Virus record (IMG/VR): IMGVR_UViG_2534682078_000020
DNA length: 26,360 bases
From: a virus
Taxonomy: Duplodnaviria > Heunggongvirae > Uroviricota > Caudoviricetes
Direction: 5' to 3' (one strand)
Shown here: positions 3,483-4,196 of the stretch, in pieces
How the letters are laid out: each line of letters starts with the position of its first letter
How positions within the stretch are numbered: position 1 is the first letter of the stretch
Program-made: the position numbers and the translations under genes
Notes under the pieces: model-generated
Database searches by the model: none
Told to the model about the DNA's origin: nothing
The model's input: the letters and a program-made list of their open reading frames with translations, nothing else

Positions 3483-4196
3483 TCAATAATCAAGCCCTTG
3501 CCTGGATACATATCTGTCTGGCGGGAAGCCATAATAGCGGTGAAATACAGAAATAAAGTAGGACCTGCTTGAATAACCGCATTTTTCTGCTATAGCCTGT
3601 CCATATCCATGCCGGGAACATAACATATTTACAGCAACACGCATCCGCTCTTCCAGCAACAAGCGACTGAACATGCCCCCTTCATTTTTCAGTTTTGTCT
3701 TTAACAAACTCTCACTCATATGCAACTGTAGAGCAATCGCACCAAGCGTCCAGCTTGCTGATATATCTGTCTGAATTATCGCCCTGACTTTGGCACTTAT
3801 GCTGGATAAACATCCACTTAAAAACAATGACATCCGTTCATCTGTTTCAAACAGAGACAGGCAGGCCATCATAAGAAACATATCCGTGACCTCTCCGGAA
3901 AATCCCTGGCTGGTAATTAAAGCCGCAGCCAACGCAGGATTGTTGGGTTCCAGCAACAGGTAAAGCGGAATGTCAGTCAGACGAGTCCTCGTCAGCTTAT
4001 GCTGACTTTCCAGATATTGACTTACGACGGATTCGCTTATATCGACAATTTTAACTTTGCCATAATGCATAAGGAAAAGCTCCCTGATGCATTTGGTGGC
4101 CAGAACGACTGAGCCTGGCTTAAGTGACAACGTATCCTTTTCAAGAAAAATATTAATTGGGGAGCAAACCATGATAACTGAACAGACAACAGCCAT
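3483..4196 (-). CDS. AraC/XylS-family transcriptional regulator (prophage cargo in late region)
   Basis: 237-aa ORF; C-terminal AraC-type double helix-turn-helix region (RLLLEERMRVAVNML...GYSSRSYFISVFHRYYGFPPDRY); AT-rich relative to flanking phage genes. Confidence 0.75.
   Translation of the reverse strand: MAVVCSVIMVCSPINIFLEKDTLSLKPGSVVLATKCIRELFLMHYGKVKIVDISESVVSQYLESQHKLTRTRLTDIPLYLLLEPNNPALAAALITSQGFSGEVTDMFLMMACLSLFETDERMSLFLSGCLSSISAKVRAIIQTDISASWTLGAIALQLHMSESLLKTKLKNEGGMFSRLLLEERMRVAVNMLCSRHGYGQAIAEKCGYSSRSYFISVFHRYYGFPPDRYVSRQGLDY

Follow-up and report, generated by a model that had tools for sequence, protein, structure and literature searches.

The locus described here raises the question of what kind of regulator a lambdoid prophage would carry between its Q-type antitermination gene and a group of tRNA genes, and of when such a regulator would be made. 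The gene lies at 3483..4196 of the window, by which we mean the whole stretch of viral DNA that was analysed (26,360 nucleotides), and was proposed in an initial annotation to be an AT-rich AraC-type cargo gene of the Q-dependent late region. The earlier description needs a correction as to strand, since the gene is encoded on the minus strand. It is listed here with its surroundings:

6792..5689, minus strand: DUF968 gene
5676..5317, minus strand: RusA
5320..4754, minus strand: Q-like antiterminator gene of the DUF1133 type (Pfam DUF1133, 3.7e-105; Phage_antitermQ, 6e-8, above cutoff)
~4682..4653, minus strand: strong intrinsic terminator, tR'-like (hairpin plus U-run), about 75-100 nt past the Q stop codon
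4530..4333, minus strand: 65-aa ORF with a weak TrmB-like winged-helix match (Pfam TrmB, E=0.002, below cutoff)
4346..4329, minus strand: second, weaker terminator-like hairpin with T-run, at the end of the 65-aa ORF and upstream of the AraC gene (-10.5 kcal/mol, z -2.3)
4259..4232, minus strand: sigma-70 promoter-like element, ATGATA/TTGATG ... TATAAT, 36-63 nt upstream of the start codon, candidate own promoter
3483..4196, minus strand: psrB-type AraC/XylS-family regulator gene, full length (237 aa, ATG start, from the ORF list)
3454..3379, minus strand: tRNA(CAT), read here as Ile2; Met according to ARAGORN and tRNA-Ile in RefSeq
3369..3293, minus strand: tRNA-Arg(TCG)
3279..3203, minus strand: tRNA-Arg(TCT)
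3190..3171, minus strand: terminator-like hairpin after the last tRNA (-14.6 kcal/mol, z -4.0)
496..3026, plus strand: IS66-family element (ISEc47-like), from its ORFs and the annotation of the O111 relative

The order of these features agrees with the earlier placement of the AraC gene between the tR'-like terminator and the tRNA triplet, with the amendment that the 65-aa ORF and the second hairpin also intervene. The gene is only mildly AT-rich, with a GC content of 43.8%, when the window as a whole stands at 46.8% and the Q gene next to it at 45%.

The gene itself is real and complete. The loss of an AraC-type DNA-binding domain on a profile search had been named beforehand as the result that would speak against the annotation, and the domain was found intact in the 237-aa ORF, with Pfam matches to both HTH_AraC (E=2.4e-13, 50.3 bits vs a cutoff of 26.6) and HTH_18 (E=5.8e-10, 39.8 bits vs a cutoff of 33.6). 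The protein thus has the C-terminal domain of about 100 residues with two helix-turn-helix motifs by which the AraC/XylS family is recognised. It is also covered end to end by phrog_1450, an uncharacterised phage family (PHROG, E=8.8e-99), and PADLOC returned no defence-system match for it. Among solved structures, the DNA-binding domain of GadX (3mkl, E=7e-19) comes closest, its alignment covering residues 134-233 with a single gap of one residue; Rns, CsvR and ToxT are the next structural relatives. An AlphaFold model was built from a 12-sequence alignment and is of low confidence (mean pLDDT 62.5). When it was searched with Foldseek, Rns, CsvR and ToxT came out on top, but with a TM of about 0.27, and only the DNA-binding domain fitted well (GadX, TM 0.57). 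Regarding the N-terminal domain, a model-based ranking at a TM of about 0.27 would say nothing firm.

Many database records begin this protein at Met43, giving 195 aa. The N-terminus of the 237-aa protein carries an MxVxCSVI motif that is common to YdeO, GadW, AppY and the PatE candidate discussed below, and the YdeO profile of NCBIfam aligns over residues 1-229, that is to say over the full length. Because both the common motif and the profile alignment include the first residues, the 237-aa start was preferred, and the 195-aa annotations of the psr-type gene are likely mis-started. In RefSeq, the gene is named only ‘helix-turn-helix domain-containing protein’. When compared to alleles of 77-91% identity, the gene showed dN/dS values of 0.22-0.29 (about 0.25), and is under purifying selection. 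The combined use of the codons ATA, AGA and CGA (2.5%) was not above that of the neighbouring genes and gave no sign of a special dependence on the adjacent tRNAs.

To which known regulator this gene corresponds could be answered by homology. E. coli O111:H- 11128, a genome to which the window shows 99.95% identity over 16 kb, encodes the very same protein (WP_000301789.1, 100% identity). Prophages of O111 strains match the 1.6-kb stretch around the AraC gene at 99.8% identity, this stretch, with the 65-aa ORF, the AraC gene and the tRNAs in it, is covered to at least 80% in 697 of 5426 complete E. coli genomes, and the exact protein was found in 4341 blocks of the assembly index. The initial annotation had called for a homology search against known prophage AraC regulators. 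In O-island 57 (OI-57) of E. coli O157:H7 EDL933, the protein EDL933_RS10010 is identical to the window protein in 235 of 237 residues (99.2%), the only differences being H196Y and I202V, both of them conservative. In resequenced EDL933 this gene sits in the second prophage of the OI-57 region (1,849,324-1,929,825 in the original EDL933 record), where the order DUF968, RusA, DUF1133-type Q, 65-aa ORF, AraC, tRNA-Ile, tRNA-Arg, TerB is that of the window. Several neighbours of the AraC gene even have the same RefSeq protein accession in EDL933 and in the O111 relative.

According to two reviews, psrB is z2104 and lies in OI-57 (PMC10877973, PMC8565820). An OI-57 typing study lists the ORFs Z2100, 2101, 2102, 2104, 2108 and 2109, and this numbering fits the gene order if the gaps correspond to the 65-aa ORF and the tRNAs; its supplement, searched for z2104 primers, gives only melting data. 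The assignment of EDL933_RS10010 to z2104/psrB was thus made by island coordinates and gene order and not by an accession match. On the basis of the 99.2% identity, the OI-57 location and the gene order, the window gene was filed as a psrB orthologue. With respect to membership of the Psr family, the close identity to PsrA or PsrB by which the family is recognised is present at 99.2%, with the psrB label itself taken from coordinates and gene order, and so is carriage on a lambdoid prophage: the window contains Q, RusA, DUF968, hok/sok, DicF, replication genes and an integrase remnant by tRNA-Ser. In the early region of this same prophage, the hok/sok toxin-antitoxin locus lies at 7598-7922 (Rfam sok, 113 bits) and the DicF sRNA at 15249-15300 (75 bits). 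Psr genes are further associated with Pch (PerC-family) regulators and effector loci on the same prophage; as to the former, a PerC-family gene lies in the late region of the O111 11128 copy, beyond the window (L001 2985-3299).

Altogether, the window gene is very probably the O111, or non-O157, allele of psrB, which lambdoid prophages would carry as cargo (a putative ‘moron’), and we extend this good confidence to the explanation as a whole, in which the protein would activate the host GAD system and its gene would be read both from its own promoter and by Q read-through. The AraC feature is therefore already known, as a member of the published Psr family and an almost exact copy of PsrB; since this near-identical protein has been published, the earlier finding is correct yet not new. 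The Psr family (prophage-encoded secretion regulators) was reportedly named by Tree et al. in 2011, and PsrA, PsrB and PatE are said to have been described between 2011 and 2015.

According to the reviews and citing papers, PsrB, PsrA and PatE are prophage AraC regulators that activate gadE, yhiF and hdeA, thus GAD acid resistance. PsrA and PsrB raise GadE and YhiF and in this way indirectly repress type III secretion of the LEE; PsrB binds the gadE promoter and the hdeA promoter region from -132 to -45 (PMC10877973, PMC8565820). The published work describes the PsrB and PsrA binding sites in these host promoters as AT-rich, and reports that survival at pH 2.5-3.5 is higher and passage through the mouse stomach better with PsrB, that PsrA helps persistence in sheep, and that secretion in O157 changes little when psrB alone is deleted. 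The AraC regulator AppY, likewise prophage-encoded, is also reported to target gadE. Further papers deal with the function of PsrA, PsrB and PatE (PMC3355084, PMC10057817).

The initial annotation had suggested cross-talk of the gene with host acid-resistance and secretion regulons. Given the identity of 235/237 residues to the OI-57 copy and the published effects of PsrB, this idea is right, and according to the accounts cited above it had already been demonstrated for this family of proteins. As the two proteins are 99.2% identical and the changes are conservative, it is the natural expectation, by analogy, that the window protein would have the same activity as PsrB. In detail, it would be an AraC/XylS-family activator akin to the host GAD-island regulators YdeO, GadW and GadX, and would bind the gadE and hdeA promoters of the host at AT-rich sites, leading to increased GadE and YhiF. 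This rise would in turn increase glutamate-dependent acid resistance and indirectly decrease type III secretion of the LEE. The psrB-type gene is present in many genomes not named as EHEC serotypes, a distribution which hints that what psr-type genes have in common may be the control of acid resistance and not that of secretion.

The second part of the question concerns expression, and here the structures between Q and the AraC gene have to be considered. The first hairpin (4682..4653) is predicted to fold with -18.2 kcal/mol (z -5.4), with 0 of 200 shuffles being as good. In a diverged relative (L017), a hairpin is found at the same place with a different stem sequence, followed by T7, and the conservation of the hairpin despite the changed stem supports a real terminator. 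A consensus scan from Q to this first terminator found no late promoter (pR'), and the tR' label and the ‘Q-dependent’ reading are therefore taken from position and gene order. The site TTGCTT-17-TTCAAT (4764..4736), considered by eye as a late promoter, matches in 7 of 12 positions and overlaps the Q stop codon; it is kept in one relative and was set aside as too weak. Regarding the second hairpin (4346..4329), the stem is kept and the loop region changed in the Stx2d/Stx2k-type locus L006. The 65-aa ORF comes after Q in all contexts examined, whatever the Q family and with or without the AraC gene, including CP-933O, where a DNA methyltransferase takes the place of the AraC gene; it is part of the Q-proximal leader rather than of the AraC gene. 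Some RefSeq records name this ORF a TrmB family regulator.

Downstream, the tRNA triplet (3454..3203) starts 28 nt past the AraC stop codon. No terminator was found in these 28 nt, and the first hairpin stands only past the tRNAs, at 3190..3171, where it is identical in EDL933. A promoter-like site, TTGATT-17-TATTAT (3493..3465, minus strand), overlaps the last AraC codons and is directed towards the tRNA triplet; the tRNAs could have a promoter of their own here, or the match could be due to chance. Past the tRNAs, the IS66-family element is bordered by an 8-bp target duplication, AAACATCG, at 488-495 and 3027-3034, and is inserted exactly at the start codon of TerB (493..62, minus strand). 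The element cuts off Q, psrB and the tRNAs from the late genes beyond it, at a junction that is uninterrupted in EDL933. Among genomes with the identical psrB allele, it is present in some and absent in others. Elsewhere in the window, within an island by tRNA-Asn with an integrase at 19659-20999, the stretch 22023-23687 holds a CBASS-type SMODS nucleotidyltransferase ORF (190 aa) and an S_4TM effector split into 90 and 111 aa. This system looks broken by frameshifts, and the 4.3-kb CBASS-type stretch is absent from the corresponding place in O111:H- 11128.

Important insight on expression came from comparing alleles, which were sampled at 100, 91, 77, 63 and 59% identity to the window protein. 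Across this range (59-100%), the psr alleles were always on the same strand as Q and shortly 3' of it, and always 5' of the genes for esterase, holin and lysozyme. Four Pfam families are represented among the preceding Q genes, namely DUF1133, PF06323, PF03589 and PF06530. Genes can be exchanged in the slot that separates the 65-aa ORF from the tRNAs: in CP-933O it holds the DNA methyltransferase, and in another locus (L014) both a methyltransferase and an AraC gene. In Stx2d/Stx2k prophages, an allele of about 91% identity stands directly upstream of three tRNAs and stxA (L006 4001-6329). In Stx phages, transcription of the stx region depends on Q, and this arrangement supports the placement in the late region that was initially proposed. 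Judged from gene order, the alleles of about 91% identity would consequently place a regulator of GAD and LEE in the same Q-dependent region as the Shiga toxin in Stx2d/Stx2k phages; in a limited literature search, we found no paper discussing a psr allele that adjoins stx. In one further locus (L021, 3663-5714), an IS3-family element takes the place of Q, both terminators and the 65-aa ORF. The psrB gene is kept there, and its native upstream sequence is preserved for about 90 nt, the promoter-like element included.

This promoter-like element (4259..4232) scored 10/12 in a consensus scan that gave 3 such sites in the region against 2.9 expected, that is no excess. Its spacer is of 16 or 19 nt, according to the -35 hexamer chosen. 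In alleles of 77% identity, the pattern TTGATGA...TATA(A/C)T has been retained among neighbouring bases that have diverged. From the two terminators after Q, the conserved element and its retention with the gene in L021, we infer that the psrB-type gene would also be expressed autonomously, from its own promoter. In the lysogen, it would be transcribed from the element at 4259..4232, and neither early nor late read-through would reach it past the terminators at 4682..4653 and 4346..4329. Once the prophage is induced, RNA polymerase modified by Q would pass both terminators, so that transcription of psrB and the tRNAs from the late operon would be added. As initially suggested, we infer from this arrangement that the AraC gene would be co-expressed with the late genes, and its own promoter may be constitutive.

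Three other explanations were weighed. The one that survives best, which we still regard as improbable, is that the AraC gene has no promoter of its own, is made only in the Q-antiterminated late transcript and acts in lytic growth. A gene of this kind would be expected where the AraC gene is indeed found, on the same strand as Q and directly 3' of Q and the terminator in all contexts examined, with the alleles of about 91% identity between Q and stx2d/stx2k, and the promoter-like match at 4259..4232 is, as just described, not statistically distinctive. However, the -10/-35-like element is conserved where its flanks diverge, L021 keeps the psrB gene though Q and the leader are lost, and the published phenotypes of the psrA deletion came from uninduced cultures. 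These points argue for expression from an own promoter in addition to Q read-through.

In a second explanation, which appears highly improbable, the AraC protein mainly regulates phage genes, such as those of the adjacent tRNAs, stx or lysis timing, and the effects on host GAD genes are side effects. The fixed place beside the tRNA triplet, and beside stx in some phages, could be read in this way, as could the tRNA-directed promoter-like site that overlaps the 3' end of the gene (3493..3465). Against this stand the published finding that PsrB directly binds the hdeA and gadE promoters of the host (PMC10877973, PMC8565820), and the fact that the closest paralogues of the protein are host acid-resistance regulators. 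Moreover, the slot between Q and the tRNAs alternatively holds a DNA methyltransferase or both genes, as exchangeable cargo would.

Finally, that the AraC gene is a decaying remnant of a defective prophage without current function, an idea to which the IS66-family insertion right past the tRNAs and the partial annotation of integrase and exonuclease in the O111 relative might lead, deserves practically no credence in view of the intact 237-codon frame with its complete DNA-binding domain, the dN/dS of about 0.25 and the occurrence of the exact sequence in thousands of assemblies.

With a psrB-type regulator of host genes read from its own promoter and by Q read-through as the preferred explanation, a more far-reaching proposal can be considered. 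Because psr alleles are fixed just 3' of Q and a terminator, Q antitermination at induction might strongly boost Psr over its basal level, which would couple SOS induction to activation of the host GAD acid-resistance regulon, with type III secretion being shut down in the cells undergoing induction. From gene order, we consider this coupling possible, if rather doubtful; no paper testing it was found in a limited literature search. From the comparative picture, prophage induction may be linked to the control of acid resistance in a way that can be tested. As a near-identical allele of a described regulator, the gene is of small value as a discovery and is useful for annotation. The additions made here are modest and consist of the slot after four types of Q, the stx-adjacent alleles, the Q-less remnant, the likely mis-started annotations and the occurrence in genomes not named as EHEC. 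Of these, the fixed slot, the adjacency to stx and the presence in non-EHEC-named genomes do not change the kind of gene that is present.

Among known systems, PsrB (z2104, OI-57, EDL933) is the nearest to the window gene, with which it agrees in 235 of 237 residues and in gene order. The two loci can still be told apart, since the PsrB locus of EDL933 has two tRNAs whereas the window has three, no insertion sequence precedes TerB in EDL933 in contrast to the IS66-family element of the window, and the host is O157:H7 in one case and O111-like in the other.

PsrA belongs to the same family as the window protein and is reported to follow the same route through GadE and YhiF to repression of type III secretion. 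It is described as z1789 of OI-50/CP-933N and as 90% identical to PsrB (PMC10877973, PMC8565820). Alleles about 91% identical to the window protein were found here (P0003, P0005 and P0006). In CP-933N of resequenced EDL933 (L003, NZ_CP008957.1) and in Sp6 of Sakai (L002), a psr gene was absent both by annotation and by tblastn. The published length of OI-50 is 47,315 bp, about 1.4 kb above that of CP-933N in CP008957, and this excess would fit a missing psr-tRNA module; it could be an assembly or a strain difference. The EvrS sRNA, which has been placed in published work between z1789 and the esterase z1793, was also considered for the window and set aside, as its position would be upstream of the esterase gene and outside the window.

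In the case of PatE, given in the reviews as z0321 of OI-8/CP-933H (PMC10877973, PMC8565820), the likeness is one of kind. It is a prophage-borne AraC-type activator of gadE and hdeA with an MxxxCSVI N-terminus and the domain layout of the window protein. The PatE candidate (EDL933_RS01490, 247 aa) is, in contrast, only 37% identical to the window protein and is carried by a different kind of prophage remnant with no neighbouring Q or tRNAs, unlike the window gene.

More distant are YdeO, GadW and GadX of the host GAD system and AppY of the DLP12 prophage, which have the two-domain architecture of the window protein at 30-37% identity (35% for YdeO of K-12). As an identification of the window protein, YdeO was rejected at 108 bits against an equivalog cutoff of 348 (NF007407), though the alignment is full length, and GadX at 87.3 bits against 500 (NF007432), with only the C-terminal half aligned. 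With scores this far under the equivalog cutoffs, the window protein is a paralogue of YdeO and GadX, and neither of them. All four of these regulators converge on gadE; YdeO, GadW and GadX do so from the chromosome core, whereas the window gene is carried on a lambdoid prophage.
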